The notes under the pieces are model-generated. The model worked only from the letters and a program-made list of their open reading frames with translations. It was not told the DNA's origin and ran no database searches. From a bacterium (GTDB lineage Bacteria > UBA10199 > 2-02-FULL-50-16 > JAJFLM01), in assembly GCA_965216315.1 (NCBI GenBank), contig CBDCFN010000016.1, positions 1,632,001 through 1,696,000 of the forward strand: a stretch of 64,000 nt of DNA, written 5' to 3'. Each line of letters opens with the position of its first letter. Position 1 is the first letter of the stretch. Shown one piece after another: positions 1 through 26,875 of the stretch. The position numbers and the translations under genes are program-made.

Positions 1-41
1 ATGGAATACAGGCTCATCCCTCACCCCGATCTTTGTTGAGC

Positions 42-70
42 TAAGGGGGAGAAACGTTCTCTCCCCCTTA
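42..70. repeat. Inverted repeat hairpin downstream of the giant carboxylase (possible terminator or intergenic repeat)
   Basis: TAAGGGGGAGA-N7-TCTCCCCCTTA, perfect 11-bp stem, no clear U-tract. Confidence 0.4.
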
Positions 71-120
71 ACCACCCTCCTCGCCTTGTGACCACTCCAA
101 CCCCAGAGCGGCCGAAAAAA

Positions 121-3100
121 CTATTTGCGCTCCGGCGGTCTCGAGGCCCTGTCCAGTTCGACCGTTCCGCTTGTAATGACCTCAATCTTACCTTTGGCCT
201 CCAGCAACAGCGAACCATCAGGAGACACATCACGTACAATCCCGGAGGCCGTAATCTCGTCACCATTCATTATATGAACCCGCTTATCTTTTAAATAAGA
301 GCGTCCGCGGACATAGCTTACAATATCCGGCCACCCACCTTCGTTAAGGCGTTGCATTTCGCTTTCTAAGGCTTCCAGGAGACGTTTCAAGACCATTGCT
401 TGATCCCAACTCTTGCCGGTATCAATGGCAAGCGAGGTCGCAGGTTTACCGATACCACTAAGATCTTCAACGGTCGCATTCGTATTCAGGCCAATTCCGA
501 CCACGAAGGCTCCGTCACCGTGCTGTTCAATCAAAATTCCCGCCAGTTTAGCATCGCGCAGATAAATATCGTTAGGCCACTTGATAGTCGGTTGTGAATC
601 CGAAATAGCTCCAACCGCCCTAGCAACGGCGGCAGCCGTAGCAAAGGTCATCTTAGGTATCACATTTTTTTCGACGGACGGCCTTATCGCGACGGACATG
701 TAAATACCGGCTCCTTTGCGCGAAACCCAAGTATTACCCGTACGTCCCCGCCCGGCCTTTTGTTGATCAGCAATAACAACCGTCCCTAACATGACATTCT
801 GATCCAATAACGCCTTCGCAACATCATTGGTTGATCCCACCGATTCGAAAGCAAAAATGCTACGCCCGATCCGACCTGCAGCAATACCCAAATCAAGCGA
901 CCGAAACCCCTCACCAAGAGTTTTGATAGCGTCAATATCAATACTATCCGCATCTTTCACTGGTCTAGGGGACTCTACCAGAGGCTTATCAACCGCAACC
1001 GCTCTCGGGACAGGTCTCTCCGGACTTTCGCTGCGGGGCGTGTCTTGACGTCTAGTCAAAATGAAGGGGCCGAGCCCCATGCTTTTGACGGCCTTCTCCC
1101 ACTGCTCAACTCCGGCATCCCCCATCGCGGCAAACGTTGTAAATGAATTTAGCCAAACATCGATCTGCGCGTCAACCTGAGCCCGATAGACTTCGCGCCC
1201 TTCATTTAAATTGCGGATATACCAGGGGCGGATTTGATTCGCCGGCACAACTTCATGAATGGCCCCAACGGCCACAGCCTTATCGACAGTGTGGATCCCG
1301 TCATATTCAAGTCGGAAACTTTCTTCCACCTCATCACGGGCCGCGCGTCTAATCTTTTCAATATCTTGAGGAGATGTTACTTTTTGCAGTCGTAACTGCC
1401 AAGACGAATCCGTCTTTAGTAATTCCTCGGCAGCCGCATTAATTTTGCGGGGGAAAATCAACTTTGTAGCGATGTTGCCTCCGATCACGGAAGCAAATGT
1501 ATTATCAACCGCTCCAACCGTAGCGTTGTCATTGATCACCCGCGAAAAGACAACATAAGCGCCACCATGGTAACGTGTCGTCACCAAGAAAGCGAGCTTG
1601 CCTTTATAATTCCGAACCGCCTCCTCAATTGCCGTGCCCCATTCCAATTGATTATTCATCAGTGATTCGGGACTACCATCAAAACCCGAGAGATTAGCGA
1701 CGACAACCAAATCGGTACGGCCACTCGCCGCGTTAATTGCACGCGCAACTTTTTTAGATCCTTCCGGAAACAGCGTCGATCCACTCCAACTATCAGGATA
1801 CCCTGGTGGAATCTCACCCTCACGTGGGAGGCTCTGCGCATCAATACCGATCATCGTCGTGGGGATACCTCCAATCGCCGTTTCTTCGACGCGAATCAGA
1901 TCAGCCCCGCCTTTTTTCCAGAGATGCCAGCGCTGTAACACAGGAGCATCCTGATCGCGGATTGATGCCATTACGGCAGCCACTGGAAACGGCTTCTTTT
2001 TTTCCTTATCCGCGAGGATCTCGCCAATGTCATAGACAGTTATCGTGGGAATGCTCGCCAGTTCCTCTAGCCTATTCAAGATCTTTCCCATCTCAGTCGC
2101 GTCTGCAGAACTAATGCCTTCATCAGACTCCGCTTGAAGTTCCAAGGCCTCCAGCGCCTTCTCTAATTGTTCTTTCTCTGCCGCTCTTGCCGCCTGTTCT
2201 GCCAGCACCTCTTCCGCTGATTTATCCGTTAAGGCCGGATCGACATAACGGTACTTCGTTACATCCCGACCATGGTGGTCGGATGTTTCCCATTGATCAA
2301 CAAGTATCTGACCCGGTGCATGCCAGGTCAAATCATGATGTTGCCAAAGCAGGCGCCTGCCCTCCGAGATCGTCTCAACGTAAAATTGGGTTTCACCAAT
2401 CGGTCCTGTCACCCGTTCCGCCCCGGCGAGACCAAGATTATCTTCGGCACCGACAGATCCCGAAATCATCTGGGCACGATTCCCGGTCAGGGCTGTATAG
2501 GAATTAGCGGCCTTAATCAGGACACCACGGCGGGTCATCTCCATCGTCGCGTTGGCATCCCAATAAGACTGGGCCCCGATGTTGCCTCCATCAACGAGGA
2601 TATTTACGACCCCGCCCGCATCACAAAACTCACCAAGACGTCTCATGACGAGAGCTGTCCAGTCCAGATTCTCAACACCCTTATCCATCGAAATACCGGC
2701 ACCACTTGAGGTGGCTTTCCAATCGATCTCAAGTCCGTGTTTTTCAGCATAATCAATGGCGGCAATGATGCGCGCACATTCAGGCTCTTGAAGCGGACAG
2801 AGTCCATAAGTCGCGTCATTGACTATTTGCATGATACGAATCCCCTCGGGATGTCGCTGTGTCGGCCGTTTCAATTCACCAAAAACGACCTTACCGGTGT
2901 TATTCCCCCGTTCCCGATTGACCTCAATGAGATCGTACGTGGCTCGATGTTCTCCGGTCTGCTCATCCTTAATCAAACGCGGGTTTTCAATATCCAGTTC
3001 ATGAAATTCTCCGCGCCCGTAGCCTTCATCGGCTGTCAGGTCTTGAACATATTGATAGGCCTCAACCAACCCAAGGCCCTCATTGCGCGCGACGCGCATT

Positions 3101-6100
3101 TTATAGGCACTACGCGGTTTGACGTAACCCTCTGGTTTACCCAAGGGCTTGACCGCTTTCATCTTCAGTCCTGTACCGCCGGGATTGCGAATCCGAAATA
3201 GCATATCTTGAAAAGGTTGATCTTCGGACGGTCGCCACCGCATCAAGCGCACGTTCGTTTCTTCGATCTGCATGCCGCGGATGCGCGGCGCAAGCCGCGC
3301 AATTGCACGCTTCATCTGGTCCGGAGTGGCCGTCACTTCGGCCCGTATCAACATATGGATGCGGTGTGCCGCCCAACCCTCTTGAGACTCGGACCGAATC
3401 GAGTGAATTGCCTGTCCAAAGGCCAAATCAATTTCGGGATAGCGCAGCGTTCCATTCCCATCACTTTGGGGGGACAAATGGCGGACAATCGAATAGGCAA
3501 AGAGCCGACGATCGGGTTTTTTCTTCTTCCCCGATGGATCTTTTTCAGTCAACTTAAAGAGGTGATTCCATTCCCACGGTGTCTGCGAGCGTTCCACCTC
3601 CCAATGTCGCCGCAATCGCCAGAGCTCTAATTGAGCCGCCCGATAGGGGTGAATCCCTCTAAAGAGTACGTCTTCAACAAACATCCCCTGGCGTTCCAAG
3701 TCAGGTCGATACGTCAGATAGAACGTTCCCGCTTCACCCATGACAAAGGTCAACGTAATCCGCTTAATTTGGCGATTGGGATCGACAAAGCCAATCAGCG
3801 AAGGAATACGCTCTGCAAGCCGCTCAATATCTCTCATGTCGCCGGTCAATTCCGGAATAATAAGCTCCAGCGTATTGTCGACCGTCTCCTGGGCACCCAG
3901 ATCGGTCGCTCCACGGTGAAAATCTTCCAGGCTCTTGATCCCCCGCTTGATTAAGTTTTTGATTCCATTCTGTCCCAAGGGATCACGGCCGGCAGAGAGA
4001 CCAACCACCGCACGCCTGACCCCGGATTCCTGATCCTTAAAAATCCCGAAAGAATAAAGATCCTGTTCTTTCACATTCAAAGTATGCGCTTCGATGTTGT
4101 GACGATCGCCATAGAGCCGCTGAAAACGGATCGCCGCGGCGATTTCGGCTGCCTCCGCATCATTTCCAAGGATGTGATCGATAATTCCTAAAATCGTAGC
4201 ATCTGCCAGCGACGAAACTTCCTTAATCACTCCCCGCCGTTCAGCGGAGCCCGCCCGGAATCCTTTGGCTTTTTTGATAAGCTCAGCAACTCGTTGGTCG
4301 GCATCGTCACGACTGACCTTGCCTAACTCCGATTCGTTGAGTGTAAAAAGGAGCCCTTGAGCGGCATGCGTCAGCTTTACGACATCACGGTCGAGATGAT
4401 TGAATTTTTCTAATGTCGCCACGAGTTTGCCTTGAGGCCCTCTCAAGGCACCCGCGTCCCACAAGGACTGCAACCAATCGAATACCCGCAGCATTAACAT
4501 CTGGCGAATTTTCGTTTCTTCGCGGGCGATCCGCATTCTGACTAAGGCACGGTCAAGGCCTTCCGAGGGTTCATCGATGGAACTCACGCCGTGGTGGCTC
4601 AAGGCCTGAGACAAAATGGCTCCAAAAGCAGGATCGGAGACCTGACGCGTTTGAATAAAATCATCAAATTGATCGAATAATGAGCGCTTCTCAACGCTTC
4701 CCCTTAAGGCATGGCGCTGAAACAACATCTCAACGTCAATGAAGGCATCGAGAATCTTAACCGCTTCTTCAGCGATGAGTTCATCTCCAACGTCTTGATT
4801 GACCGCATGTCCTAAAGCGTCGAAAATTCCCTGGGCATAGGGGCTTAATTCATCTTGCCGCTCGAAACCCTTAGGAACGGAGGTATAGAGTCGCTGCAAC
4901 GGATCATAGTTGAGACTGGCATCGCGCAATAAAGCCGTCATCTCCCGGTAGCTTTCAGGAAAGTTGCCTACAATGTTTACGATGCCTGCCGCAAAATCTT
5001 CTGTTCCCGGAGCTACGTGAAAGAGTTGCTGCACTTCCGTCTCTCCCGTCGGCCTGAATTCAAGCTGAGGGGCCTCAGGAGGAGGACGATCATCCGGTTC
5101 CTTGATGCGGACGAGTAATTTGCCTTGGAGCACGGCAGCATTTTCAGAAACCAAGTATTCTTCGAGTATGCCGGGGACCTGCGCCTTCAGCGGTTGTTCG
5201 ATCTTCATAACCTCTAGAACGGCAATAACATCACCCACGTTGACAACATCACCCGGCTTTTTCTCATACCGAAGTACGGTTCCATTTTGGGTCGCGCGCA
5301 CTTCTCCGACAGGAGGATTATCGACAGTAAACGCGACTCCATTGACAGAAATTGGATAAGCGCCTTGTTTCTCCGATCCAATGATGGGAACGCGCTTGCC
5401 ATCAATCGTCATGTTAAACTCGGAACCGCTGGGCCCCTTCGTCTCCAAGTCAACTGTGTAGTCGCGACCATTAATACTCACTAAATAGTCGCCTGACCTT
5501 TCACTGACAGAAAGCCTATATTCGCGGCCAAACAGGGCAAATACAAATTCCGCTTCTTTGCGGGGCGGCAACTTCGGCAGACGTCCCTTGCGCAAGGTCG
5601 CAAGCACACCATTATCATATGCACTGCGCTGTTTACGGTAGGCGAGAATCGCCGCAGCCACGAGTGCTTCATGAGAGTACTGTTTGACTTCCCAAGGCTT
5701 GCGCATCGGCATGTAGTGGTCCTGGAGCCATTTATTTGAATAGGCAATGTCACCAAATACCTGATGTCCCATCACCTCGATGGCAAAGCCACGCATCGTG
5801 CGCACGCCGTCAACGGCGAGATCCGTCAAGCCACGCATGGTGACCGCGCGCGCTGAATTGCGGTCGCGACCTTTTCCGATCAATTTAAGGAGCGTCGGAT
5901 CATATCCCGCGGTAATGACATCTCCCTGACGTACCGCGACGTCGGCACGTATGCCTTTGCCCGTGGGCGGCCGAAACAATTTAAGGGTTCCACTGGTTGC
6001 GGCAAACTCCTCATCGGCATCCTGGGCATAGATGCGCACCTCAAAGGCCGTTCCTCTGGGTTCCGGAGTCGATTTCACGGACAAACGATAGCCTTCCGCA

Positions 6101-7887
6101 ACCCGAATCTGTTCTTTCACCATATCAACGCCGGTAACTTCTTCGGTAATCGTGTGTTCGACTTGGAGGCGGGCATTGATCTCCATCGGATAAAAGTCCA
6201 TCCCGTCATAGAGACCTTCAAAGGTCGCAGCCCCGATGTAATCCGCTTCATGGAGCACGCGGACCGCATGTTGATGCATGCCTTGACGTTGACCGTTAGG
6301 AATATTCGGCGCCGGCGCCTCTTCGATGATCTTCTTGTTCTTCCATTGAATGGAACAGTCACGATCACCGACGGCAACACAATTGCCATGTTGATCTCGA
6401 ATCAGCTGAATCTCAACATGCCGCGGTGCAATGAGTTTGTTGACATAAACCGAGGCATCATCGTCATTGTCGATGGCTTTACGTTGGATATATTCGAAGG
6501 CCTGCATGAACTCGCGACGATCATAAAGAAAGACGATATGTTCATGTGGATTGTCGCTGGCTTTTAGCTGCTCTTCCGATAAATGGGACAGCACCAGCGG
6601 ATAACCTAGTTCATTCGCAACCGCCTCACCCTGTGACTGTGTCGCCACTTTATGCCACGGCTCATCCGACGGTCTCGGCAAGATAGCCTTTTCGATAAAG
6701 ACGGTGGGATTACCAAAGGCACGCAGTGCTCCCGCCTGTGCCTTTGAAAAGGCATCTCTCAACTCCGCTTCGTTGTGCACAAAGTAGATTCCTTCACCAC
6801 CGCCTCCCGCTGTGGCCTTAATCACGACAGGATATCCCAACCGCTCTGCAACCTGAATTGCCTGCTCAAGCGTATCCGCCTCACCCCAGGTTAATTGATC
6901 CGGATCGGCCAGCCGTTTGAAACCAATCTTATCACCAACTAATTCCATCGCCGACTTGCGAGGGCCGAGAAAGCGAGAGCCAAGCTCAGTCACCAACGCC
7001 GAAAGCTCCGGATTCTCCGAGGCAAAGCCCCAACCGGGCCACACTCCGATGTCGTTAGCCGAAAGCCCTTCCGCCTCCGCTTGTCTAATCACCTGCTCCA
7101 AGGCTTCGCGCAGGATGACATCAACATCGTTGTAGGCAAGGAGCTTCTTGGTCTTATCGGGATCATCATCCGTCGGATCCGGCACATCGCGACTATCCGG
7201 CACAAGTATCGCTTGATCCGCGTCGACCACAAACGGAGCCCCGGCATCCGCCTGCGTATACATGACGATCACTTCGATTTTTTCACCGCGTTCACGTTCC
7301 AACTCACGAACCGCGGTAATCAGACGCGAAGCCGCCTCACCCCGATTGGGTACAAAGATCTTCCGTAAATGACTTACCTCCGGCTCAACCGTTTCACCCG
7401 GGTCCGCATTCAACTGAACCGCCGCTATGACATTAAGTGGAGCCGGCTCGCCCACAACTGCCGACGTGCCAGCCATTGCAGACGTATCGACGACTGTATG
7501 ACTCCCGGCAAGGGCTTCCGGAGACAAAGCCGCCCTCATTTCCATTAACTTCTCTTCAATGAGCTGTTGAAGTAGGGGTGATTGATCGGATGCCTTCCCT
7601 TCTGTCGCCAGTTCATGCCCATGGTCGAGTACTTCTATCGCTCGAGCGCGAATGACAGCCGCATCAGTTTCTGGATGGAGCTGATCCGCTGTCAGCGAAG
7701 TCAACGGTTGAAGATGGCCGCGGAATGTATCTAAGCCGCGTTGCAAATAAGGATCATCTTGCAGAAGCGTTTGTGTCGACTGAATGTTGTTGAGTATTTG
7801 CGGCTCTTGAAGAACACCGGAGGCCGCTAAGATTCCGGTAGAAGTGAGCGACAATGAGGAGGTCGCTCCGATGGTAAATAGACCCAT
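121..7887 (-). CDS. Single-chain acyl/acetyl-CoA carboxylase (BC-BCCP-central-CT) with about 170-aa N-terminal extension and C-terminal biotin-protein ligase (BirA-like) domain
   Basis: BC motifs NRGE, PGWGFASEN, IKATAGGGGEG, MEINARLQVEH; biotinyl motif EVMK; CT motifs SSGAGISMD, ANLSGFDGSPES, RYHGGAYVVF; BPL motifs STND, QKAGRGRTG, KWPNDI, KLAGILIE. Confidence 0.9.
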   Translation of the reverse strand: MGLFTIGATSSLSLTSTGILAASGVLQEPQILNNIQSTQTLLQDDPYLQRGLDTFRGHLQPLTSLTADQLHPETDAAVIRARAIEVLDHGHELATEGKASDQSPLLQQLIEEKLMEMRAALSPEALAGSHTVVDTSAMAGTSAVVGEPAPLNVIAAVQLNADPGETVEPEVSHLRKIFVPNRGEAASRLITAVRELERERGEKIEVIVMYTQADAGAPFVVDADQAILVPDSRDVPDPTDDDPDKTKKLLAYNDVDVILREALEQVIRQAEAEGLSANDIGVWPGWGFASENPELSALVTELGSRFLGPRKSAMELVGDKIGFKRLADPDQLTWGEADTLEQAIQVAERLGYPVVIKATAGGGGEGIYFVHNEAELRDAFSKAQAGALRAFGNPTVFIEKAILPRPSDEPWHKVATQSQGEAVANELGYPLVLSHLSEEQLKASDNPHEHIVFLYDRREFMQAFEYIQRKAIDNDDDASVYVNKLIAPRHVEIQLIRDQHGNCVAVGDRDCSIQWKNKKIIEEAPAPNIPNGQRQGMHQHAVRVLHEADYIGAATFEGLYDGMDFYPMEINARLQVEHTITEEVTGVDMVKEQIRVAEGYRLSVKSTPEPRGTAFEVRIYAQDADEEFAATSGTLKLFRPPTGKGIRADVAVRQGDVITAGYDPTLLKLIGKGRDRNSARAVTMRGLTDLAVDGVRTMRGFAIEVMGHQVFGDIAYSNKWLQDHYMPMRKPWEVKQYSHEALVAAAILAYRKQRSAYDNGVLATLRKGRLPKLPPRKEAEFVFALFGREYRLSVSERSGDYLVSINGRDYTVDLETKGPSGSEFNMTIDGKRVPIIGSEKQGAYPISVNGVAFTVDNPPVGEVRATQNGTVLRYEKKPGDVVNVGDVIAVLEVMKIEQPLKAQVPGILEEYLVSENAAVLQGKLLVRIKEPDDRPPPEAPQLEFRPTGETEVQQLFHVAPGTEDFAAGIVNIVGNFPESYREMTALLRDASLNYDPLQRLYTSVPKGFERQDELSPYAQGIFDALGHAVNQDVGDELIAEEAVKILDAFIDVEMLFQRHALRGSVEKRSLFDQFDDFIQTRQVSDPAFGAILSQALSHHGVSSIDEPSEGLDRALVRMRIAREETKIRQMLMLRVFDWLQSLWDAGALRGPQGKLVATLEKFNHLDRDVVKLTHAAQGLLFTLNESELGKVSRDDADQRVAELIKKAKGFRAGSAERRGVIKEVSSLADATILGIIDHILGNDAEAAEIAAAIRFQRLYGDRHNIEAHTLNVKEQDLYSFGIFKDQESGVRRAVVGLSAGRDPLGQNGIKNLIKRGIKSLEDFHRGATDLGAQETVDNTLELIIPELTGDMRDIERLAERIPSLIGFVDPNRQIKRITLTFVMGEAGTFYLTYRPDLERQGMFVEDVLFRGIHPYRAAQLELWRLRRHWEVERSQTPWEWNHLFKLTEKDPSGKKKKPDRRLFAYSIVRHLSPQSDGNGTLRYPEIDLAFGQAIHSIRSESQEGWAAHRIHMLIRAEVTATPDQMKRAIARLAPRIRGMQIEETNVRLMRWRPSEDQPFQDMLFRIRNPGGTGLKMKAVKPLGKPEGYVKPRSAYKMRVARNEGLGLVEAYQYVQDLTADEGYGRGEFHELDIENPRLIKDEQTGEHRATYDLIEVNRERGNNTGKVVFGELKRPTQRHPEGIRIMQIVNDATYGLCPLQEPECARIIAAIDYAEKHGLEIDWKATSSGAGISMDKGVENLDWTALVMRRLGEFCDAGGVVNILVDGGNIGAQSYWDANATMEMTRRGVLIKAANSYTALTGNRAQMISGSVGAEDNLGLAGAERVTGPIGETQFYVETISEGRRLLWQHHDLTWHAPGQILVDQWETSDHHGRDVTKYRYVDPALTDKSAEEVLAEQAARAAEKEQLEKALEALELQAESDEGISSADATEMGKILNRLEELASIPTITVYDIGEILADKEKKKPFPVAAVMASIRDQDAPVLQRWHLWKKGGADLIRVEETAIGGIPTTMIGIDAQSLPREGEIPPGYPDSWSGSTLFPEGSKKVARAINAASGRTDLVVVANLSGFDGSPESLMNNQLEWGTAIEEAVRNYKGKLAFLVTTRYHGGAYVVFSRVINDNATVGAVDNTFASVIGGNIATKLIFPRKINAAAEELLKTDSSWQLRLQKVTSPQDIEKIRRAARDEVEESFRLEYDGIHTVDKAVAVGAIHEVVPANQIRPWYIRNLNEGREVYRAQVDAQIDVWLNSFTTFAAMGDAGVEQWEKAVKSMGLGPFILTRRQDTPRSESPERPVPRAVAVDKPLVESPRPVKDADSIDIDAIKTLGEGFRSLDLGIAAGRIGRSIFAFESVGSTNDVAKALLDQNVMLGTVVIADQQKAGRGRTGNTWVSRKGAGIYMSVAIRPSVEKNVIPKMTFATAAAVARAVGAISDSQPTIKWPNDIYLRDAKLAGILIEQHGDGAFVVGIGLNTNATVEDLSGIGKPATSLAIDTGKSWDQAMVLKRLLEALESEMQRLNEGGWPDIVSYVRGRSYLKDKRVHIMNGDEITASGIVRDVSPDGSLLLEAKGKIEVITSGTVELDRASRPPERK

Positions 7888-7956
7888 GCCTGAAAACCCC
7901 AGACCTTTCGAATGTAACGATCCTCCCCATGAGGAGGCCCTCGACGCAGTTCTTTG

Positions 7957-7981
7957 TTCGGACTCAAGGGGTAAAAGTTGC
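7957..7981 (-). promoter_or_regulatory. Sigma-28-like promoter, copy 1 (giant carboxylase)
   Basis: Minus strand GCAAC-TTTTACCCCTTGAGT-CCGAA (CAAC-N15-CCGAW), about 70 nt upstream of ATG 7887. Confidence 0.7.
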
Positions 7982-8019
7982 TAATTTTTTCGAAATCGAA
8001 ACGGCGAAGATAGTAAGTT

Positions 8020-8032
8020 TAACTAATTGATA
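8020..8032 (-). promoter_or_regulatory. IHF-consensus site
   Basis: TATCAATTAGTTA matches WATCARNNNNTTR exactly. Confidence 0.5.
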
Positions 8033-8049
8033 TAATTAAATTTATGCTG

Positions 8050-9882
8050 CTATTCGGTCACGATGTTGTCGAGGCGGTCGAGGGCCTTGATGACAACCTC
8101 CCGCAAGATCGCATTGTGGGCCTTATAGGGGGCCCGCGGGACGCTCCGCAAGAACACGATGCGGGCGGGTGCCAATCCCTTGACCCCGGGCCCGGCAACA
8201 TTTTCCATATGTCTGAGCAGCTCAACCTCGGTATACCGAGCCCCCCGGGCGAGCACAACGGCAGCGACAACCATTTCTCCCAGTTTCTTGTCCGGGATTC
8301 CAACGACGTGACAATCCTGAATTCCCGACATCCCACGCATATGATTTTCAATCGTCCGTGGAAAGACGGCCTGGCCATTGGTCACGATCTTTTCGATCGA
8401 GCGCCCAAGTACCGTAAGGAAGCCGTCCTCATCCAACTTACCGAAGTCATCGCCCTCACGGAATCGCCCATCGGTCAGTGCGTTCTTGACGTAGATCGTC
8501 CCGACTTGACCCGGACCCAGGATCGTACCGCCCTGGTCGCGAATCTGAATCTCAACTCCCGGTGCGGGGCGCCCCACGGTCTCTTTATGGGCGAGTAATT
8601 GATCCGGTCTAAGGACGGTTACCAAACCAAATTCCGTCGTCGCATAATTTTCCCAGATGATGGGCCCGAACACGCCGACAGCAAGCTCCTTCAATGAAGG
8701 ATGAAACGGAGCCGCTCCGACGTAAATGGCCCGCAACGAATCAAGTTTATAATCGTGGTGAGAATCGGCAACAAACATACACAAGCTTTTCAACCAATGC
8801 GGCGAGGTCCAAAAGTTGGTGAGTTGATGGTTATCAATCAAATCTAAAGTCGCTTCCGGATCAAAGGCGAGGCTCGGGGTTTCATCGAGCATCACCATTG
8901 CCCCGCGATTGAGATGTCCCTTCGCCCAGGAGTGCGCACCGCCATGATAGAGTTGGCCCACAACGAGGTTTTTGTCTCTTTCAGTAATTTGAAACAGGCG
9001 GTTCGCCTTGCGTCCGACGTTCGCATCGCGCTTAACACGGACTAGCTTGGGCTCACCGGTCGTTCCCGAACTCATCATCACGGGACCCGGATACTCAGGC
9101 GCAACCATATCCGCACTCGCGGCTGGCGGTCGTTTAAATTCTTTAATGATACTTCGGTAGTGAAGAACGTTCGGATACTTGTTATCAATGTCGACCACAA
9201 TCGTTCCCATCGCCTCAAGCAAGGGAAGATAGAGTTCGATATGCAGTAAACTTTCATGATCGAGAAACAACACGCGATACGGCTGAGCCCGTAGTTTCTC
9301 CATGATCTGATCGCGTGATAGATAAGAATGAAAATTGGTGTACGCCACACCGGCACGCTTGGCTCCAATATTGATCGAGAAATGTTCAACGCGATTCCGA
9401 CTGAAGAAGATGGCGACTTGTTGATCATCCGAGTCACGACAACCCGCAATGAAGCGACCGAGGATATCCGCATGGGCGTCCAACGTCCCATAGGTTAACC
9501 CTTCCGTGCCTTGTCGCACTGCCACACGCTGTCCCCAACTAAAGGCATTTTGCGCAATCGGATCGGTTCGATTGATCGGACCCGGCGTCATCCGACTCGT
9601 CAGGTCGCTCAATACACCACGAATTTGCTCGCGGGTCGGTATGCTGAGCAGCGTCGGCAACGTATAACTCCCTAAAAAGGGATGGACTATCTGGGACTCG
9701 TGACCGCGCCAGTAGAGATCCTGGACGTCTTCCCAGATTTCTCCGTCGGTGAGCTGATCATCCGAGTGCATGTGCCGTTCGATTTGCGCAAGCTCCTCCG
9801 TAAAGGCCGCGACGTTGAAAGTCCCGCGGCTGGCACAGAGCATAGGGGCAACCATGAGCTGGGTCGCCAAATTGGATGACAT
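8050..9882 (-). CDS. AMP-binding (ANL superfamily) acyl-CoA synthetase-like protein with N-terminal extension
   Basis: MSSGTTGEPK P-loop, YATTEFG, GIPDKKLGE; start moved to ATG 9882 because the promoter motif overlaps the 9915 start. Confidence 0.8.
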   Translation of the reverse strand: MSSNLATQLMVAPMLCASRGTFNVAAFTEELAQIERHMHSDDQLTDGEIWEDVQDLYWRGHESQIVHPFLGSYTLPTLLSIPTREQIRGVLSDLTSRMTPGPINRTDPIAQNAFSWGQRVAVRQGTEGLTYGTLDAHADILGRFIAGCRDSDDQQVAIFFSRNRVEHFSINIGAKRAGVAYTNFHSYLSRDQIMEKLRAQPYRVLFLDHESLLHIELYLPLLEAMGTIVVDIDNKYPNVLHYRSIIKEFKRPPAASADMVAPEYPGPVMMSSGTTGEPKLVRVKRDANVGRKANRLFQITERDKNLVVGQLYHGGAHSWAKGHLNRGAMVMLDETPSLAFDPEATLDLIDNHQLTNFWTSPHWLKSLCMFVADSHHDYKLDSLRAIYVGAAPFHPSLKELAVGVFGPIIWENYATTEFGLVTVLRPDQLLAHKETVGRPAPGVEIQIRDQGGTILGPGQVGTIYVKNALTDGRFREGDDFGKLDEDGFLTVLGRSIEKIVTNGQAVFPRTIENHMRGMSGIQDCHVVGIPDKKLGEMVVAAVVLARGARYTEVELLRHMENVAGPGVKGLAPARIVFLRSVPRAPYKAHNAILREVVIKALDRLDNIVTE

Positions 9883-9906
9883 GAGACCTGTAAACACAGT
9901 GGGCTC

Positions 9907-9931
9907 ATCGCACATTTTCGGAAAAAGTTGT
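9907..9931 (-). promoter_or_regulatory. Sigma-28-like promoter, copy 2
   Basis: Minus strand ACAAC-TTTTTCCGAAAATGT-GCGAT (one mismatch in the -10 element). Confidence 0.55.
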
Positions 9932-10032
9932 TTATTTCTTAGGGGTTATCTTCGAATCCTTGCGAAAGAATCGCCGGTTGAGGCTTCGCGATAGATCTGC
10001 TAAGGACTCGATTCACATAAGGAGCTAAGTTC

Positions 10033-10413
10033 ATGAAAAAGATATTCATTCTCGGTGCCGGCCTCATTCTCGCGACCGGCCTCTCTGCTTGCCAGAAATC
10101 AACGGATCCAGCCAAATCAGAGCCGACTTCCACCCTAGAATCAACGAGTTCGGGAGACAAAATCTCCGGCGAGGCCTTCAGCGGTGATTATGTCACGGTC
10201 CTGTGCCGCAAATACAAAGAATGTGGCATCAATGCCTTTAAAACGGATAAGGATTGTCACAATCGTATCAAGGCGGTTCTCGACAAGGATGCCAAATGGC
10301 AAGAGCTCAACTTGGACAAGTCAGCGCTAGCCACGTGCTTAAAGGACTTTAAGGACTTCTCGTGCGACAATTTTAAGGCAGGCAAGGCCCCGGATAGCTG
10401 TCAAAAGCTCTAG
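10033..10413 (+). CDS. Cys-rich lipoprotein of unknown function
   Basis: SD AAGGAG, lipobox LSAC, six Cys in the C-terminal domain. Confidence 0.75.
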   Translation: MKKIFILGAGLILATGLSACQKSTDPAKSEPTSTLESTSSGDKISGEAFSGDYVTVLCRKYKECGINAFKTDKDCHNRIKAVLDKDAKWQELNLDKSALATCLKDFKDFSCDNFKAGKAPDSCQKL

Positions 10414-10495
10414 GATATTGTTTTTCCTTGCGTATTTTGGGGTTAACTCGATATAAGGCCCCCGCCTTTTTCATTAATTTATAAGGAGATCTTCA

Positions 10496-12502
10496 ATGGA
10501 AGCGTGGATTCAATGGGCACCTATAATCGGTGTCATCGGGTTGGTGACGGCAGGACTACTCTACGTAGGACTCAAACGTCACTCGGTAGGAACAGAACGA
10601 ATGGAAGAACTGGCGGAGCAGATTCATAAAGGCGCCATGGTCTTTCTCAAACGAGAGTACATGATCTTGGTGTTCTTTATTATACTCGTCGGGCTGCTCT
10701 TGGGCTTTTATATATCGCGGAACACAGGATTCGCCTTCTTAGCGGGCGCCATCTCCTCAATGCTGGCCGGTTTTATCGGCATGAAAGCCGCCACGCGAGC
10801 CAATGTCAGGACGACCGCCGCAGCCAACCAGGACGGGACAGCCTCCGCCCTCAACGTGGCTTTCTTTGGCGGTTCGGTCATGGGACTCTCAGTTGCCGCT
10901 CTGGGCCTGATTGGATTAGGCGTCTCTTTTTACTTGTACCGACTTGGTTATATCCAGGCCGCCGAAATCAATGGTTTTGCCATGGGCGCCTCTTCAATCG
11001 CCCTCTTCGCCCGCGTCGGTGGCGGGATTTATACCAAAGCCGCTGATGTCGGTGCCGACCTCGTCGGTAAGGTTGAAGCCGGCATCCCCGAAGATGATCC
11101 ACGCAACCCGGCTACCATTGCCGATAACGTCGGTGATAATGTCGGCGATATCGCCGGCATGGGCGCAGATATCTTTGAATCTTACGTCGGCTCGGTTATT
11201 GCAGCGATTGCCATTGCCTCTACCGGCGCCGCCTACGCATCATTAAAACTGGCCTATATGACCTTCCCCTTAGCCCTCGTCATGATCGGCTTGGTCGCTT
11301 CGATCATCGGTGTCCTCTCTATGAAGGTTCTTCGAGGATTGGGACCGGAAGCTGCGATCCGCTATGTGCCCTTAGCGCCACTCATAGGTTTCCTAGTTGG
11401 TGCTTACTTCCTCGCGGACGCGTTGGGGATTCCTCAGGGAACGGTCGTCGCCGTTGTCTCCGGTTCCGTTGCGGGAGCGTTGATCGGTCTCGTCACTGAG
11501 TACTACACCTCGGCAAAACCGATTCGTGACATCGCTGCGGCCTCTCAAACAGGTCCGGCCACGACCATCATTTCCGGAATTGGCGTAGGCATGAAGAGTT
11601 GCGTGCTCCCGATTTTGATAATCTGTATTGCGATTTACTTAGGTTACACCTACGCGGGCCTCTACGGAATTGCCATTTCGGCTGTGGGCATGTTGGCCAC
11701 AGTTGGTGTCACGATGTCAGTCGATGCTTACGGTCCAATTGCTGATAATGCAGGTGGTATTTCAGAAATGGCCGAGCTTGGCCCCGAAACACGTAAAATT
11801 ACGGACGGTCTTGACGCTCTCGGCAACACGACTGCTGCCATCGGTAAAGGCTTTGCCATTGGCTCTGCGGCACTGACCGCCTTGGCCCTGTTCTCTGCCT
11901 ACGCTTCAGCCGTTGGACTGAGCACTTCGGGAATTAACATCATGGACCCGCGCGTCGTCATCGGCCTCATGGTCGGCGGTGTTCTGCCCTTCTTGATTGC
12001 CGCGCTGACCATGGATTCAGTCGGTAAAGCCGCCTATGCAATGGTTGAAGAAGTCCGGCGCCAGTTCAAAGAGATCAAAGGACTCATGGAAGGAAAGGCC
12101 AAACCCGACACGGAACGTTGTGTCGACATTTCCACCAGTGCCGCACTGAAGGAAATGATTCTCCCTGGCATCAGCGCAATCCTCGGACCTATCTTGGTCG
12201 GTGTCCTCCTCGGCAAAGAAGCCGTTGGGGGCTTACTCGCCGGCGCAACGGTTACCGGTGTATTGCTTGCCCTGTTCATGGCGAATTCAGGCGGTGCCTG
12301 GGATAATGCCAAGAAGTACATCGAAGGCGGTGCTCATGGCGGTAAAGGATCCGATCCGCATAAAGCCGCCGTCGTTGGTGACACCGTCGGTGATCCTTTT
12401 AAGGATACCAGCGGACCTTCAATGAATATCCTGATCAAGTTGATGAGTGTTGTCAGTCTCGTGTTGGCACCACTCTTTGCAACCCTGACACCGTTGCTGT
12501 AA
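10496..12502 (+). CDS. hppA: Membrane-bound cation-translocating pyrophosphatase, K+-dependent type
   Basis: [35 protein letters not shown] (Ala variant marks K+-dependent enzymes), [14 protein letters not shown]. Confidence 0.95.
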
Positions 12503-12509
12503 TTTTATT

Positions 12510-12537
12510 GTAGGGGCGACCGGCCGGTCGCCCCTAC
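12510..12537. repeat. GTAG-type REP-like perfect palindrome between convergent genes
   Basis: GTAGGGGCGACCGGCCGGTCGCCCCTAC, 28-bp perfect palindrome overlapping the stop of the permease gene. Confidence 0.7.
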
Positions 12538-13835
12538 TTCCGTTTACGGTGAAAACTGTACAAAACAACCCCAACCGCCAACAAGCCTGCCGCTCTTAGA
12601 TAAGCCCCGGTCGAAAACTGCGCAGCCATATAGAGCGTGATAACGGTGCCAAGAATGGGAACCGGCAAGGGTACCTTAAAGAATGATCTGGCCGGGTTGT
12701 CCGGGTAGACCTTTTTAACTTTTACGGCAATCAGCGACACATTCACCAGACAAAATGCCAACAAGATAATGACATTCGTTGACTCGGCAAGAACCTTTAA
12801 AAACCCAGTGAGTGCAAAAGCCATGGCGAGCAGACCCGCAACCAACACCCCCGTCGTTGGTGTTTGGCGACGCGCATGAACGCGGCCAAAGCCATCGGGA
12901 ATCCAACCCGAACGCGCCATCCCGTACAAGATACGCGAACACATAATCATATTAAAGAGTGCGCTGTTAAAGACCGCAAACAGGGCAATGCCACTGAGCC
13001 ACTTGGTGGAGAAAAACGGTAGGAGTCGTTCAGCCACGATCGCGAGCGGCACCTCCGATCTCGCTAACTCAATAGGCGAAGCCACTGAAACAACCGTCAA
13101 TCCGACACCAATATAAACAATAGTTGAAATGATCACCGCTAAGATAATGGCACGAGGAATCGTTCGTTCAGGTTGAATGACCTCTTCGGCAACGTTACAA
13201 ATATCCTCAAACCCTATATACGCATAGAAGGCCAAGGCCGCCCCGGTAACAATGAGGCCGCTCGGATTGCCATGCAAAGTGCCAGTACTGGTGTCAAAGT
13301 AATCAACACTTCCCCACTTGGGGAGGGCATAGATTACAAGGACGATCAAGGCCCCTACCGAAACTACCGTGCAAAGAACATTCACCCAGGTCGCTTCTCG
13401 AATGCCGCGGTGATTCAATCCCGTAATAAGCGATAAGAAAATCAGAATAATCGACCAACGTGGGAGATCGATAAATTGCGCGAAGTACCCTGCAAAGCCA
13501 TGACTTAAGGCTGCTGTCGATGCAATGCCACTGGCGAGGATTAAGAAGCCAACGATAAACGAAAGGGTCCCACTCTTAAAGGCGCGATTTGCGTAAACCG
13601 CCTCCCCTGCCGATTTCGGATAGCGACTCGCCAGTTCCGCGTAGGAAAGGCCGGTTGGCAACGCCGCACAGGCCGAGGCCACGAAAACAATCCACACCGC
13701 ATTACCGGCGACCCCTGCAATCTTACCAACCAACACGTAAATGCCCGCACCGATGATAACACCGACTCCGTATAATGTAAGGGTTGTCGTCTTCAGATGA
13801 CGCCGCAGGCTTGGGGCTTGTATCTCCCGACTCAT
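12534..13835 (-). CDS. APC-family amino acid permease
   Basis: GVIIGAGIY, SYAELASRYP, FYAYIGFE, about 12 hydrophobic segments. Confidence 0.9.
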   Translation of the reverse strand: MSREIQAPSLRRHLKTTTLTLYGVGVIIGAGIYVLVGKIAGVAGNAVWIVFVASACAALPTGLSYAELASRYPKSAGEAVYANRAFKSGTLSFIVGFLILASGIASTAALSHGFAGYFAQFIDLPRWSIILIFLSLITGLNHRGIREATWVNVLCTVVSVGALIVLVIYALPKWGSVDYFDTSTGTLHGNPSGLIVTGAALAFYAYIGFEDICNVAEEVIQPERTIPRAIILAVIISTIVYIGVGLTVVSVASPIELARSEVPLAIVAERLLPFFSTKWLSGIALFAVFNSALFNMIMCSRILYGMARSGWIPDGFGRVHARRQTPTTGVLVAGLLAMAFALTGFLKVLAESTNVIILLAFCLVNVSLIAVKVKKVYPDNPARSFFKVPLPVPILGTVITLYMAAQFSTGAYLRAAGLLAVGVVLYSFHRKRK

Positions 13836-13865
13836 TGCGCTAGACCCTATCTCAGGAGGAAAGCA

Positions 13866-14288
13866 ATGTCGATTGAACAAATTACCCCTACGATTGCTAA
13901 AGAAATGCTCGATAAAGATGCGGACACCATCTACTTAGACGTCCGTTCCATCCCTGAATTTACTCAAGGTCACGCTGAAGGAGCCATTAATATCCCTCTC
14001 CTCCACCTCAATGAACAAAGTGGCACGATGGAGCCCAACCAAGACTTCGCCAAGGTCGCCCAGGCCGTTCTTCCTCCGGAAAAAACTTACGTCGTTGGTT
14101 GCAAAATGGGAGGCCGCTCCCAAAAGGCCTGCGAACTGCTCACTATGCTGGGTTACCAGAATCTATTCAACATCGATGGCGGATTTGTCGGCAATGATCA
14201 TCAGCCCGGTTGGCAAGCCGAGGGGCTTCCAACCAGCACCGATAACGGCGAGGGCGTCAGTTACGAATCCTTAGCTGCTAAGGCATAA
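13866..14288 (+). CDS. Rhodanese-like domain protein
   Basis: YLDVRS..EF..GH..GAINIP, CKMGGRS active loop, SD AGGAGG. Confidence 0.9.
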   Translation: MSIEQITPTIAKEMLDKDADTIYLDVRSIPEFTQGHAEGAINIPLLHLNEQSGTMEPNQDFAKVAQAVLPPEKTYVVGCKMGGRSQKACELLTMLGYQNLFNIDGGFVGNDHQPGWQAEGLPTSTDNGEGVSYESLAAKA

Positions 14289-14350
14289 GGAGGAAAACTA
14301 GACTCTCGCCTTGACAGGCCTTCTTGGTTTATAATACAGCGCCTAAGCTT

Positions 14351-14647
14351 ATGAGAACACTTCGTCGCCATCGATGGATCGCAGCACTGAGCGTCGCCAG
14401 TCTTTTGTGCTTGAGCCTTATCACGGGCTTCCATCATCATGATCATGACGACACCTCCGCCCATGAGGCCACTCAAGACTGTACGGTCTGCCTCGCAGCA
14501 TCTCAGTTAAGCACGGATACAAAAGTCGGCACGCTCCGTATTGAAACAGCGCCCCCTCATTTCTACTATCTCGTTACAAGTCACAACCATGCGGTAAGCC
14601 GTCTTCAACAAAGTCCCTTTAATTCCCGCGCTCCTCCTCACGCCTAA
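14351..14647 (+). CDS. DUF2946/CutF/CruR-like leader protein (signal/TM segment, His cluster, CxxC, C-terminal RAPP)
   Basis: HHHDHDD, CTVC, ends NSRAPPHA; first gene of a metal uptake operon. Confidence 0.75.
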   Translation: MRTLRRHRWIAALSVASLLCLSLITGFHHHDHDDTSAHEATQDCTVCLAASQLSTDTKVGTLRIETAPPHFYYLVTSHNHAVSRLQQSPFNSRAPPHA

Positions 14648-14739
14648 GTTCACTCACAACTTAGGTTAATCAAACAATCATTCAAGCAATGGGTTTTGCC
14701 CGTATTCAACTGCGCACGCACCCATTTGAGGAGCTTCAT

Positions 14740-15510
14740 ATGTTTAAGCATTTTTTACGTCTCTTATTTATTGCCACTTGTACTTGTACTTGCGCGGCAA
14801 TGATGTCCTGTGCCTCAGGCCAGGGCGGCACGGGAAACACCACTAACAATACGAGCACAGGTACGGCAGCACTTTCTCTACAGTTAGAAGAAGGCGCCAC
14901 CGGCCTCAGCCAGAACAACTACCAACTAGATTTCACGACCTTCGCGTTGGCTTTCTCCAAGATCACTCTCGGGGATCAGGAGGTTACAGAGAGCTTCACC
15001 GCCGATTTCTTCGACGAAGAAATCACCGACGTCATCGAGATGGAAGACGTCCCGACCGGCGAATATAATACGGCAACGCTTACCTTGGGCACCGCCAGTG
15101 GGCTCAGCGGCGCGGCCGCGCTCGTGGCCCACAATCTTCAGGCGGCCACTGTGGGAAGCGATGTCACCTCCAGCTTAAATGGCTTATCGGTACTGATCAT
15201 CGCGGATGCCCAAAACGGTGCGGACACTTGTACGCTGCGAGTAGAACTCGTCAGCGATGCGACGATTACTGTCGGTAATGATGCTGCCGCTGATATTGAT
15301 GTTGGCGCCAACGAAGAAACCGAAGTCCTTGTCGCCGTCGACCCGGATGCCATTTTCGGAACCATCACAGTCCCCGCCACTTGCTCAGGTGATGCGACGG
15401 TGACTATTTCGGCTACTGAAAATGCAGCCCTGGGAACGACACTACTGAGCAACCTCAAAACGGCCTTTGAACTTGAAAGTACAGATGGCCATTCCCACTC
15501 ACACGATTAA
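14740..15510 (+). CDS. Lipoprotein with C-terminal His motif, putative metal-binding
   Basis: SD GAGGAG, signal peptide ending in Cys (MMSC), C-terminus DGHSHSHD. Confidence 0.65.
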   Translation: MFKHFLRLLFIATCTCTCAAMMSCASGQGGTGNTTNNTSTGTAALSLQLEEGATGLSQNNYQLDFTTFALAFSKITLGDQEVTESFTADFFDEEITDVIEMEDVPTGEYNTATLTLGTASGLSGAAALVAHNLQAATVGSDVTSSLNGLSVLIIADAQNGADTCTLRVELVSDATITVGNDAAADIDVGANEETEVLVAVDPDAIFGTITVPATCSGDATVTISATENAALGTTLLSNLKTAFELESTDGHSHSHD

Positions 15511-25124: not shown

Positions 25125-25316
25125 GGGGTATTTTTGCCTATTTTTTCAGCTACTTAAGAGAGATATCTCGACTCGCAGGCCCACTTTCGCTCCTGCCCCC
25201 AGCTGATTAAAATCATTATATTTTTTAGACTTATCCACAGATCGTTCTCAAATTAATCTGCAACAAAAACGGTTAAATATTTGTCCTTTGATTCAGATAG
25301 CGCTAGTCAGGGGCCC

Positions 25317-26366
25317 ATGTTAGCCCCACCGCGCATTAACGGACTTGCAACGGCCGCCCCCGCAACAAAAGTTCCGCAGCCAGATGCGAAAGCGTATTTC
25401 ACCGAACTTTTTCGGAAGGGACTTGCGGACGTCGACCGCCTGAGTTCCGTCTTCGACAACGGCCGCGTCGATAACCGTTACATTGCAGAATCGTTAGAAT
25501 GGATGGGAAGTCAGCACAGCTTTGAAGAAAAGAATCGGCTCGTCATTGATCACTCGGTCGAAGTGGCCGCTGAAGCCGCCGAGAAGGCCTTTGCTGATGC
25601 CGGTATCCATGCCAAGGATATCGAAGCCTTAGTGGTCGTTTCATCCTCGTCAGTCGCCACACCGAGTCTTGATGCCTTACTAATCGAACGATTGGGTCTT
25701 TCGCGGCATACGGTGCGTCAACCGATGTTCGGGTTAGGCTGTGCTGGCGGCGTTGCCGGCATTTCTCATGCGGCGGATCTGGCACGCAGCATGCCGGGAC
25801 GCAATGTCCTCTTCATCGCCGTAGAAATGAACACCCTCACCTTTCAATGCAACGACATGTCGAAGACCAACTTTATCAGTTCGAGTCTCTTTGGCGATGG
25901 GGCTGCTGCCGTCGTGCTTAATACCTGGGGAGACGGTCCCAAATTTATCGGTCGCCACAATACTTTACTGCCAAAATCCGAATGGGTCATGGGCTGGGAG
26001 GTCATCGAAACAGGCCTCAAGGTCCGCATCTCTACCGATATTCCTTCGGTCGTCGATATCCAACTGCCACAGCTCTTTGAAGATGCCTGTGATCGCTGGG
26101 GCGTGTCCCGACAACAAATCCGTCACTTTATCTTGCATCCTGGCGGCGCCAGAGTACTGGATGCCTATGTTAACACCCTGGACCTCAGTGAAGAAAATCT
26201 TAAACATTCGAGTGACGTGCTTCGGGAATTTGGCAACATGTCGAGCCCAACCGTCTTATTTGTACTCGATCGATTCCTAAGAGAACCTCCTGAAGCTGGT
26301 GAGTATGGTATCTTGCTGGGCTTTGGCCCCGGCTTCAGCGCTGATCAAGCCCTCCTCCAATGGTAA
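25317..26366 (+). CDS. Type III polyketide synthase (SrsA/BpsA-like)
   Basis: Catalytic triad motifs GLGCAGG, HPGG, GNMSSPT; LFGDGAAA; GFGPG. Confidence 0.92.
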   Translation: MLAPPRINGLATAAPATKVPQPDAKAYFTELFRKGLADVDRLSSVFDNGRVDNRYIAESLEWMGSQHSFEEKNRLVIDHSVEVAAEAAEKAFADAGIHAKDIEALVVVSSSSVATPSLDALLIERLGLSRHTVRQPMFGLGCAGGVAGISHAADLARSMPGRNVLFIAVEMNTLTFQCNDMSKTNFISSSLFGDGAAAVVLNTWGDGPKFIGRHNTLLPKSEWVMGWEVIETGLKVRISTDIPSVVDIQLPQLFEDACDRWGVSRQQIRHFILHPGGARVLDAYVNTLDLSEENLKHSSDVLREFGNMSSPTVLFVLDRFLREPPEAGEYGILLGFGPGFSADQALLQW

Positions 26367-26875
26367 GCCTATTCTTTTGGATCTTCATTGCCGTTGTTAC
26401 GGTACAACGCTTATTTGAATTATGGTTGGCCCAACGAAATCAGAAAATTGCCCTCGCCGCAGGTGGAGTGGAACACGGTACCAGTCACTACCCTCTTATC
26501 GTCGCCCTTCATGCCCTCTGGCTGGTGGCCTGGATCATTGAAAGCTTGGCTCGCGGACCCTATCTCAATAGTTACTGGATTATTTTTCTCGTCTTAGTAA
26601 TGCTTGCACAAGCTCTGCGTTATTGGGCGATCAGCTCGCTTGGGAGCGCCTGGAATACCCGCATCATCGTCATCCCTGACGGCGAACGGGTCAAACGAGG
26701 CCCCTATCACTTTGTTTCACACCCTAATTACGTCGCCGTCACCATTGAACTCGTCTGCCTCCCGATGATCTTTGGGGCCTGGATCACAGCCATCGTAGCG
26801 ACTATCATTAATGCCATTGTCCTGCTTGGAATTCGTATTCCTGCGGAAAATCGCGCGCTAAAAAGTCTTCAATAA
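26360..26875 (+). CDS. ICMT-family methyltransferase (SrsB/BpsB-like)
   Basis: QRLFEL, LRYWAI..LG..WNTRI, GPY..HPNY; overlaps the PKS stop. Confidence 0.9.
   Translation: MVSLFFWIFIAVVTVQRLFELWLAQRNQKIALAAGGVEHGTSHYPLIVALHALWLVAWIIESLARGPYLNSYWIIFLVLVMLAQALRYWAISSLGSAWNTRIIVIPDGERVKRGPYHFVSHPNYVAVTIELVCLPMIFGAWITAIVATIINAIVLLGIRIPAENRALKSLQ

Follow-up and report, generated by a model that had tools for sequence, protein, structure and literature searches.

A bacterial single-chain acyl-CoA carboxylase with a C-terminal biotin protein ligase that probably loads its own biotin

We analyzed a 64,000-nucleotide stretch of DNA from an uncultured bacterium (GenBank assembly GCA_965216315.1, contig CBDCFN010000016.1, positions 1,632,001 to 1,696,000 of the forward strand; hereafter the window) and focused on P0001, a gene that occupies window positions 121..7887 on the reverse strand. 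Judged by its sequence, the gene product is a single-chain carboxylase of the acetyl-CoA carboxylase (ACC) type and, in its last 250 residues, a class-I biotin protein ligase (BPL); the two kinds of enzyme are known, and their combination is new. We consider it probable that P0001 is a cytoplasmic, eukaryote-style, biotin-dependent acyl-CoA carboxylase, most likely an acetyl-CoA carboxylase, with the ligase tethered at its C terminus and loading the enzyme's own biotin. The gene is one open reading frame (ORF) of 2588 amino acids (aa), which starts at an ATG, ends in a stop codon at 121-123 and has no internal stops according to the ORF list and translation. It encodes, in order, an N-terminal extension, biotin carboxylase (BC), a biotinyl (biotin carboxyl carrier protein, BCCP) domain, an ACC central region, carboxyltransferase (CT), a predicted disordered linker and the BPL.

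One reading frame from biotin carboxylase to biotin protein ligase

The ligase spans residues 2336-2588 (window 124..882; this and all other features of P0001 lie on the reverse strand) and is identified by TIGR00121, Pfam and Foldseek as a class-I (monofunctional) enzyme, with a catalytic domain followed by an SH3-like BPL_C domain. TIGR00121 (birA_ligase, NCBIfam) matches residues 2344-2578 across positions 2-234 of its 235, scoring 168.7 bits against a cut-off of 83.1, and the fused domain reached 174.9 bits when the whole genome was searched with the ligase model. In Pfam, BPL_LplA_LipB covers residues 2348-2462 (68.2 bits) and BPL_C residues 2535-2578 (23.3 bits; cut-off 21); like these two, every Pfam match of P0001 exceeds its curated cut-off. 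Pfam and NCBIfam scans reported no helix-turn-helix (HTH) family ahead of the ligase. Its motifs GSTND (823-837), GRGR (736-753), KWPND (568-582), KLAGIL (532-549) and GIGLN (484-498) are all present, and we take them, from what is known of BirA, to serve activity. When five motif patterns were scanned in the six fused ligases introduced in this section and the next, GRGR, KWPND and KxAG(I/L) were found in all six and ST(N/M/Q) and GIGxN in five, the sixth (P0123) having variants of both; the BCCPs of all six proteins carry the MK acceptor motif.

Among solved structures in the Protein Data Bank (PDB), the closest sequences to the ligase are those of the monofunctional enzymes 2EAY and 1WNL (E 1e-28 to 2e-26). 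An AlphaFold2 model of residues 1990-2588, built from a 16-row alignment (mean pLDDT 80, pTM 0.49), gives the ligase domain a pLDDT of about 90 and places model residues 294-325 (protein 2283-2314) below 50, a pattern that predicts a folded domain without fixed position on a disordered linker. Foldseek superimposed the modelled ligase on the BPL of Pyrococcus horikoshii (TM 0.91-0.93, rmsd ~2 Å), and its matches include 2EJF and 2EJG, which are BPL-BCCP complexes. The linker itself (residues 2255-2335, window 883..1125) consists of a conserved short helix region and then a tether rich in P, D, R and S that is predicted to be disordered; it is the least conserved segment of the protein, with 22-33% identity in distant fused relatives and 78% in P0002, a close relative 93% identical to P0001. 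The ligase is 38-42% identical among the distant fused relatives, compared with 38-39% for the central region, and 92% identical (209/228) in the close relative. Its rate of change is thus close to that of the central region, which, together with its preservation in the close relative, fits purifying selection. Taken together, these results lead us to picture a folded and probably active ligase, held on a flexible leash beside CT, the site that the swinging BCCP visits.

In the carboxylase body, BC (residues 171-730, window 5698..7377; Pfam and PDB matches) comprises an N domain, an ATP-grasp domain and a C domain, with a BT-like start after them: Biotin_carb_N matches residues 174-314 (66.9 bits), CPSase_L_D2/ATP-grasp residues ~320-603 in two stretches (204 bits) and Biotin_carb_C residues 616-722 (79.5 bits). 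PDB biotin carboxylases match with E values of 1e-64 to 3e-79, and the region contains KIIEEAP and NARLQVEH, presumably catalytic motifs. The biotinyl domain (residues 856-930, window 5098..5322) is recognized by Biotin_lipoyl over residues 861-928 (44.1 bits). Its acceptor is the lysine of EVMK, Lys895 (window 5203-5205), and both M894 and K895 are invariant across alignment A1.

Beyond the BCCP lies the non-catalytic, ACC-type central region (residues 931-1620, window 3028..5097). Pfam ACC_central (PF08326) matches residues 1371-1569 with 41.9 bits (cut-off 23.2), covering only profile positions 497-693 of 726, and the region aligns throughout with bacterial single-chain ACCs of ~1860 aa. 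Carboxyl_trans (PF01039) recognizes the C half of CT only (residues 1963-2171 of a domain at 1621-2254, window 1126..3027; 45.7 bits), whereas it covers both halves in the relatives P0003 and P0123. The CT is 40-47% identical to the CT ends of non-fused ACCs, its N half aligning too, and among fused relatives the two halves are the best-conserved parts of the protein (CT_N 59-64%, CT_C 51-62%).

Because the non-fused ~1860-aa relatives cover residues 174-2254 of P0001 only, its N-terminal ~170 aa and C-terminal ~335 aa are additions. In all, four segments set it apart from them. The first is the extension (residues 1-170, window 7378..7887), rich in L, A, T and S, and the last is the linker with the BPL (residues 2255-2588). 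Between these stand two inserts. An 84-aa insert in the ATP-grasp domain (residues 403-486, window 6430..6681), delimited in alignment A1, is found only in P0001 and P0002, where it is 92% identical; P0003, P0004 and P0005 have 0-6 aligned residues there. An insert here is unusual; by inspection of the translation it seems to repeat, in tandem, part of the grasp segment just before it, with the glycine loop missing. A coiled, A/E-rich insert of 73 aa in CT (residues 1881-1953, window 2029-2247) is likewise confined to P0001 and P0002. Much of this anatomy had been read from the letters alone in an earlier note on this DNA: its single 2588-aa frame with BC, biotinyl, central, CT and BPL parts is borne out by the ORF, Pfam and NCBIfam analyses, the last two also agreeing with its BirA catalytic domain free of an HTH. 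Its motif coordinates, including 5203-5205 for the EVMK lysine codon, proved correct when relocated on the sequence, and the ~170-aa extension it described agrees with the alignment start of non-fused relatives at ~174.

Relatives and rarity of the fusion

A word-indexed search for relatives, in which the best 120 of 2794 were considered, returned three that bear a ligase: P0003 (2361 aa), P0004 (2381 aa) and P0005 (2460 aa), at 41-45% identity. Residues 1990-2588 also served as the query for an exhaustive phmmer search of 1.84 billion cluster representatives, which gave 46,718 hits. Of the 150 best, a single protein spans the CT end and the ligase (query positions 1-588 of 599); this is P0123, of 2381 aa, a gene of genome G031. 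These four fused relatives (41-48% identity) come from separate assemblies, and all four keep a single frame through the junction. Together with P0001 they form one clade in a tree of the carboxylase body, with an SH-aLRT of 100 whether ligase columns are included or not, and the same five are one clade in a tree of the ligase domain (support 91/88). Their sister group is the widespread family of ~1860-aa bacterial single-chain ACCs (SH-aLRT 99).

The phylum of the window is represented in our collection by 93 species genomes of one class. The ligase model has 71 matches in 68 of them, and three of the 71 fall in giant open frames, a result that a protein query reproduces. The three frames measure 2619 codons between stops in the window genome (G000), 2386 in G031 and 2458 in G001. 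The last of these encodes a sixth fused protein, P0122 (2456 aa), which has a C-terminal BPL and is ~25-34% identical to P0001; it has no Pfam ACC_central match and groups with a non-fused 2161-aa carboxylase of genome G010. Among the 93 genomes, fused ligases are confined to these two carboxylase lineages. Twenty-five genomes, 13 of them among the 63 high-quality ones, lack a BPL match, and whole families are included (f3, 0/6; f13, 0/4); in a search of 41 genomes, families without BPL mostly lacked carboxylase matches as well, and such genomes may represent biotin-free lineages.

The fusion of a carboxylase with a ligase is therefore very rare in nature, with three of 71 ligase matches in the phylum and one of the best 150 phmmer hits. 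When the ligase region was used in word-indexed searches of long proteins, two proteins and one were returned; known fused members were missed, so these figures are not usable as counts. With P0001 and P0003 as queries, no related locus was found in the collection's genome contigs; alignment A1 retrieved 80 loci there through BC-domain patterns, mostly ordinary accC genes or operons. The H+-pyrophosphatase of the locus, used as a query for taxonomy, matched loci in many phyla and gave no placement. Full-text literature searching found no publication on a natural carboxylase-ligase fusion.

The phylum is rich in giant, eukaryote-like carboxylases of 2053-3816 aa. A 2791-aa protein of G011 (L214, G011:C31, 3017-11392) has a full-length ACC_central match (325.8 bits) as well as a BT domain match. 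In G062 a giant carboxylase gene (L221, G062:C44, 2759-10429) precedes a gene (10457-15154) whose domains are those of a fungal-type fatty acid synthase beta chain (FAS_N, SAT and Fas1 helical; 455 bits).

Self-loading and its alternatives

Self-biotinylation is the most economical reading of this architecture, and the retention of the catalytic motifs makes it likely. The tethered ligase would make biotinyl-5'-AMP and hand the biotin on to Lys895; the swinging BCCP that bears this lysine could belong to the ligase's own chain or to the partner chain in the oligomer. The 285-kDa enzyme would in this way prime itself once made, independent of the cell's free ligase. Once loaded it would work as any ACC: BC would carboxylate biotin at the expense of ATP and bicarbonate, and BCCP would bring the carboxyl group to CT, which would load it onto the acyl-CoA. 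The gene, its domain order and its motifs are read directly, as are the conservation of the fusion within a clade and its rarity, and the ligase and linker are modelled; that the ligase is active, on a carrier in its own chain or oligomer, and that the enzyme works on its presumed substrate in the cytoplasm, is what we infer from them.

Several observations weigh against this reading. The GRGR loop departs from the E. coli form beyond its fourth residue, and many giant carboxylases of the same phylum have no fused ligase. A free-standing ligase accompanies the fused one in all three genomes (G000, C16:185383-186102, 194 bits; G001, contig C110; G031, immediately after the fused gene), so the fused domain is not required as a substitute for it. 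The window genome further encodes three carboxyltransferases of the PCC-beta type with BC and BCCP partners; P0001 therefore need not be its only source of malonyl-CoA. In the 93%-identical relative P0002 the frame breaks exactly at the ligase start, and the tether would be dispensable if that break is real. A single clade for all six ligase-bearing bodies is rejected (log-likelihood 190 lower, p-AU 3.9e-6), in a test weakened by the naming of the six-protein group after the tree was seen and by the long branch of P0122, and the ligase tree does not discriminate between a single and a double origin (p-AU 0.415). The ligase was thus either joined to a carboxylase on two occasions, or passed with its linker, as a module, from one paralog to another; in both cases two carboxylase lineages carry it.

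The free ligases bear on where the fused domain came from. That of the window genome pairs with the free ligase of G002, a genome of the same family (100/98), and its identity to the fused domain is 33%, which indicates that the fused domain is old and not a recent copy of the housekeeping gene. In G031 two ligase domains stand in tandem, because the fused gene is followed by a 257-aa ligase gene (L107, G031:C15, 14609-15382, forward strand) that overlaps its stop by 17 nucleotides (nt) and is the sole other ligase found in that genome. The 257-aa protein branches, weakly supported (68/73) and with a long branch, as sister to the clade of fused ligases and is 30% identical to the adjoining fused domain. 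A carboxylase gene followed by a ligase gene, the arrangement in G031, is a plausible starting point for fusion. The free ligase of G010 (L115, G010:C77, 1480-2535, reverse strand; 351 aa) has ~130 unassigned residues ahead of its catalytic domain, in which no HTH family was reported at E 1e-5.

The alternative that fares best, though we regard it as unlikely, is a ligase that is active but works mainly on other targets, such as the cell's other BCCPs, or that serves as a biotin sensor or regulator gating the carboxylase, with fusion co-regulating the ligase dose. The genome does hold at least two other BC/BCCP systems, and BPLs are described in PMC3199775 as modifying heterologous BCCPs. The position of G031's only free ligase directly behind the fused gene links ligase supply to the operon, and NCBIfam models attest BirA fusions with a second role, to an HTH repressor or to pantothenate kinase. 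A free ligase for general duty, however, is already present in each of the three genomes; the flexible C-terminal tether beside CT would, according to the model, place the fused ligase near the BCCP of its own enzyme; and in this phylum a fused ligase occurs on two carboxylase lineages and on nothing else. These points favor loading of the enzyme's own carrier.

We regard it as highly improbable that the fusion is an artefact of a frameshift or stop missed in the assembly, or that the ligase is a recently fused copy now in decay. The one foothold of this view is the close relative: P0002 breaks off at the ligase's first strand, with the remainder called as a separate 228-aa ORF, P0124. The last residues and stop of P0002 correspond to the +1 frame of the window's S-T-N-D codons, and P0124 begins at the TTG of the next Leu, so a single-base indel separates the split and the fused states. 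Yet the ligase part of the split relative, at 92% identity, shows no further damage, as one would expect of a sequencing error or of a very recent change in that contig, but not of a fused form in decay. Logan contigs cover the BPL, linker and CT end of the window with no differences and no indel (X1, 121-2600; X2, 214-2600; a piece of X4, 792-1283); this includes the linker at 900-1150, for which read mapping had been proposed earlier. These contigs were built independently from four runs on two samples of one study, and the runs may be the source of the assembly itself, so they are not fully independent. Conservation is for that reason the stronger argument for a genuine fusion: in four distant relatives the junction is crossed in a single frame, and the ligase motifs are intact.

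The earlier note had gone further and suggested that a self-biotinylating enzyme with an N-terminal extension would suit activity outside its own cytoplasm. The analysis does not support this. The ~170-aa extension is an addition relative to the non-fused family, and a self-priming enzyme could in principle work in a foreign cytoplasm, for instance when exported or injected into a host or prey without a suitable ligase. The extension, however, lacks K and R at residues 2-10 and has neither a basic n-region nor a hydrophobic core, and the highest 19-residue Kyte-Doolittle mean anywhere in P0001 is 1.25, with no transmembrane segment. Hydropathy and composition revealed no export signal; no dedicated signal predictor was run, and type III, IV and VI signals are not excludable from sequence alone. 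No secretion-system gene was seen in the window. The extension is 93% identical in P0002, and is on that account probably translated, but only 16-19% identical in distant fused relatives, and its sole detectable relative in the genome is the N terminus of a neighboring CT-type paralog. The phylum's giant non-fused carboxylases commonly have comparable extensions, one of them beside a type-I fatty acid synthase gene. With presumed operon partners and conserved neighbors drawn from core lipid metabolism, biotin synthase encoded in the genome and a separate BPL retained, an N-terminal targeting signal for export is a very remote prospect.

Locus, paralog and significance

Upstream of P0001, across a gap of 162 nt, lies the gene for a 621-aa AMP-binding enzyme of the acyl/acetyl-CoA synthetase type (window 8050..9915, reverse strand; AMP-binding 134.6 bits, AMP-binding_C 35.5 bits), and such a gene also adjoins the fused carboxylase of G001. 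An H+-pyrophosphatase gene lies beyond it; downstream are a gene for a 1991-aa protein, a thiolase gene and a glycerol-3-phosphate acyltransferase gene. We compared window 1-12502 with the corresponding loci of two family mates (L108, G001:C390; L219, G002:C7). All three family genomes show pyrophosphatase, giant carboxylase and thiolase genes in this arrangement, and the carboxylase at that locus belongs to a different lineage in each, only two of them with a ligase. From the sequences this looks like replacement in place at a kept locus. A thiolase gene is also found near the carboxylases of G031 and G010. A promoter and terminator scan of the locus gave 7 and 13 candidates against 8.3 and 10.8 in shuffled sequence, no excess over chance, with none in the two intergenic gaps.

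The genome encodes the biotin synthase bioB (388.9 bits); BioY was not found in it, nor was an AccA-type transferase. The AMP-binding synthetase and thiolase neighbors, and the missing AccA-type transferase, are the genomic context in which acetyl-CoA seems the most likely substrate. Some 17 kb from the carboxylase, at window 25281-26875 on the forward strand, are genes for a type III polyketide synthase (chalcone/stilbene synthase family) and then an ICMT-family methyltransferase. This pair may be related to known phenolic-lipid pairs and is a likely consumer of malonyl-CoA. Farther away, a 207-aa protein (window 47325-47948, forward strand) has a C-terminal match to the chromodomain-type Tudor-knot (32.5 bits), a domain that is uncommon in bacteria.

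The 1991-aa downstream protein, P0272, has its start in the window (1..17, reverse strand) and lies mostly before it (L109 4042-10017; G000:C16:1626045-1632017). It has no Pfam or NCBIfam match. In hhalign, its residues 688-1607 align with the fused-ACC profile from P0001 position 1052 to at least ~1735 (probability 97.2%, E 3e-11, 728 columns), a span comprising the central region and the first half of CT. Residues 1270-1620 match the CT region of other giant carboxylases in the phylum, and an ortholog in G077 (38% identity) has a Pfam Carboxyl_trans match; a protein atlas assigns P0272 to ACC_central+CT with a score of 0.86, which is a lead only. By these comparisons P0272 is a remote carboxylase paralog with a central region and CT, devoid of BC and BCCP, and with a leader of ~86 residues in common with P0001 (28% over 86 aa, E 2e-4 to 4e-6 by BLASTP). 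An N-terminal signal common to the phylum's giant carboxylases was considered and rejected, the best E value of a three-leader profile against 21 other N termini being 0.013. A loose 'M-x-x-F/Y-T/S-I' resemblance among leaders has no statistical support, and in pairwise comparison only P0001 and P0272 are related.

Because P0272 has the same leader as P0001 and neither BC nor BCCP, one can imagine the two as a two-chain machine, a speculation to which we give little weight. The common leader would dock both chains, one self-biotinylated BCCP would serve two CT sites with two acyl-CoA specificities, and the built-in ligase would keep the shared carrier loaded.

Among known systems, the ~1860-aa bacterial single-chain ACCs of Acidobacteriota, Polyangia, Woeseiaceae and Chlamydiota metagenome-assembled genomes, annotated as 'carboxyl transferase domain-containing protein', have the BC-BCCP-ACC_central-CT order of P0001 and are 29-41% identical to it over residues 174-2254. 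Unlike P0001, none of the 116 listed carries PF03099, and they have no N-terminal extension, BC insert or CT insert. Eukaryotic ACC, as in yeast (PDB 5CSK; 5csk_A, E 2e-54), is likewise a single chain of BC, BCCP, central region and CT; according to PMC3199775, it is biotinylated by a separate holocarboxylase synthetase, whereas P0001 has a ligase in the chain. Class-I BPLs (Aquifex aeolicus 2EAY; Pyrococcus horikoshii 1WNL, 2EJF and 2EJG) resemble the P0001 ligase in sequence, fold, motifs and lack of a DNA-binding domain, but are free proteins of 230-270 aa, while the P0001 ligase is a C-terminal domain of its presumed substrate. In natural BirA fusions the ligase core is also joined to a second function, an N-terminal winged-helix repressor or a type III pantothenate kinase (NCBIfam PRK13325). 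Those ligases are paired with a regulator or with an unrelated enzyme, the P0001 ligase with the biotin acceptor itself. Engineered fusions (AviTag co-expression, BioID/TurboID) use a tethered ligase to force local biotinylation, as proposed for P0001; these are man-made, and the proximity-labelling variants are promiscuous mutants, while the P0001 ligase keeps its GRGR loop.

The closest analogy is the alpha chain of fungal fatty acid synthase, which has a phosphopantetheinyl transferase (PPT) domain at its C terminus. According to PMC6972935, this domain modifies the acyl carrier protein of the same synthase during assembly. The PPT differs from the P0001 ligase in cofactor, enzyme family and carrier fold, so the likeness is one of design and not of homology.

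To our knowledge, all biotin enzymes reported to date receive their biotin from a ligase that is a protein of its own. PMC3199775 treats the ligase as independent and describes four known forms, none of them fused to a carboxylase. If self-loading is true, P0001 would do for biotin what the self-pantetheinylating fungal fatty acid synthase does for its own cofactor. The protein lends itself to asking how a ligase finds its BCCP inside a megaenzyme, whether loading proceeds in cis or across a dimer, and whether tethering aids loading when biotin or ligase is scarce. A self-biotinylating ACC, were it confirmed, would be usable in hosts and cell-free systems without matching of the ligase and could aid malonyl-CoA engineering. 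For the organisms themselves, the same addition on two carboxylase lineages in one small phylum suggests that there is a selective reason for it, and the many giant eukaryote-like carboxylases of this phylum, together with at least one gene for a fatty acid synthase of fungal type, are relevant to how the type-I enzymes of lipid synthesis arose.

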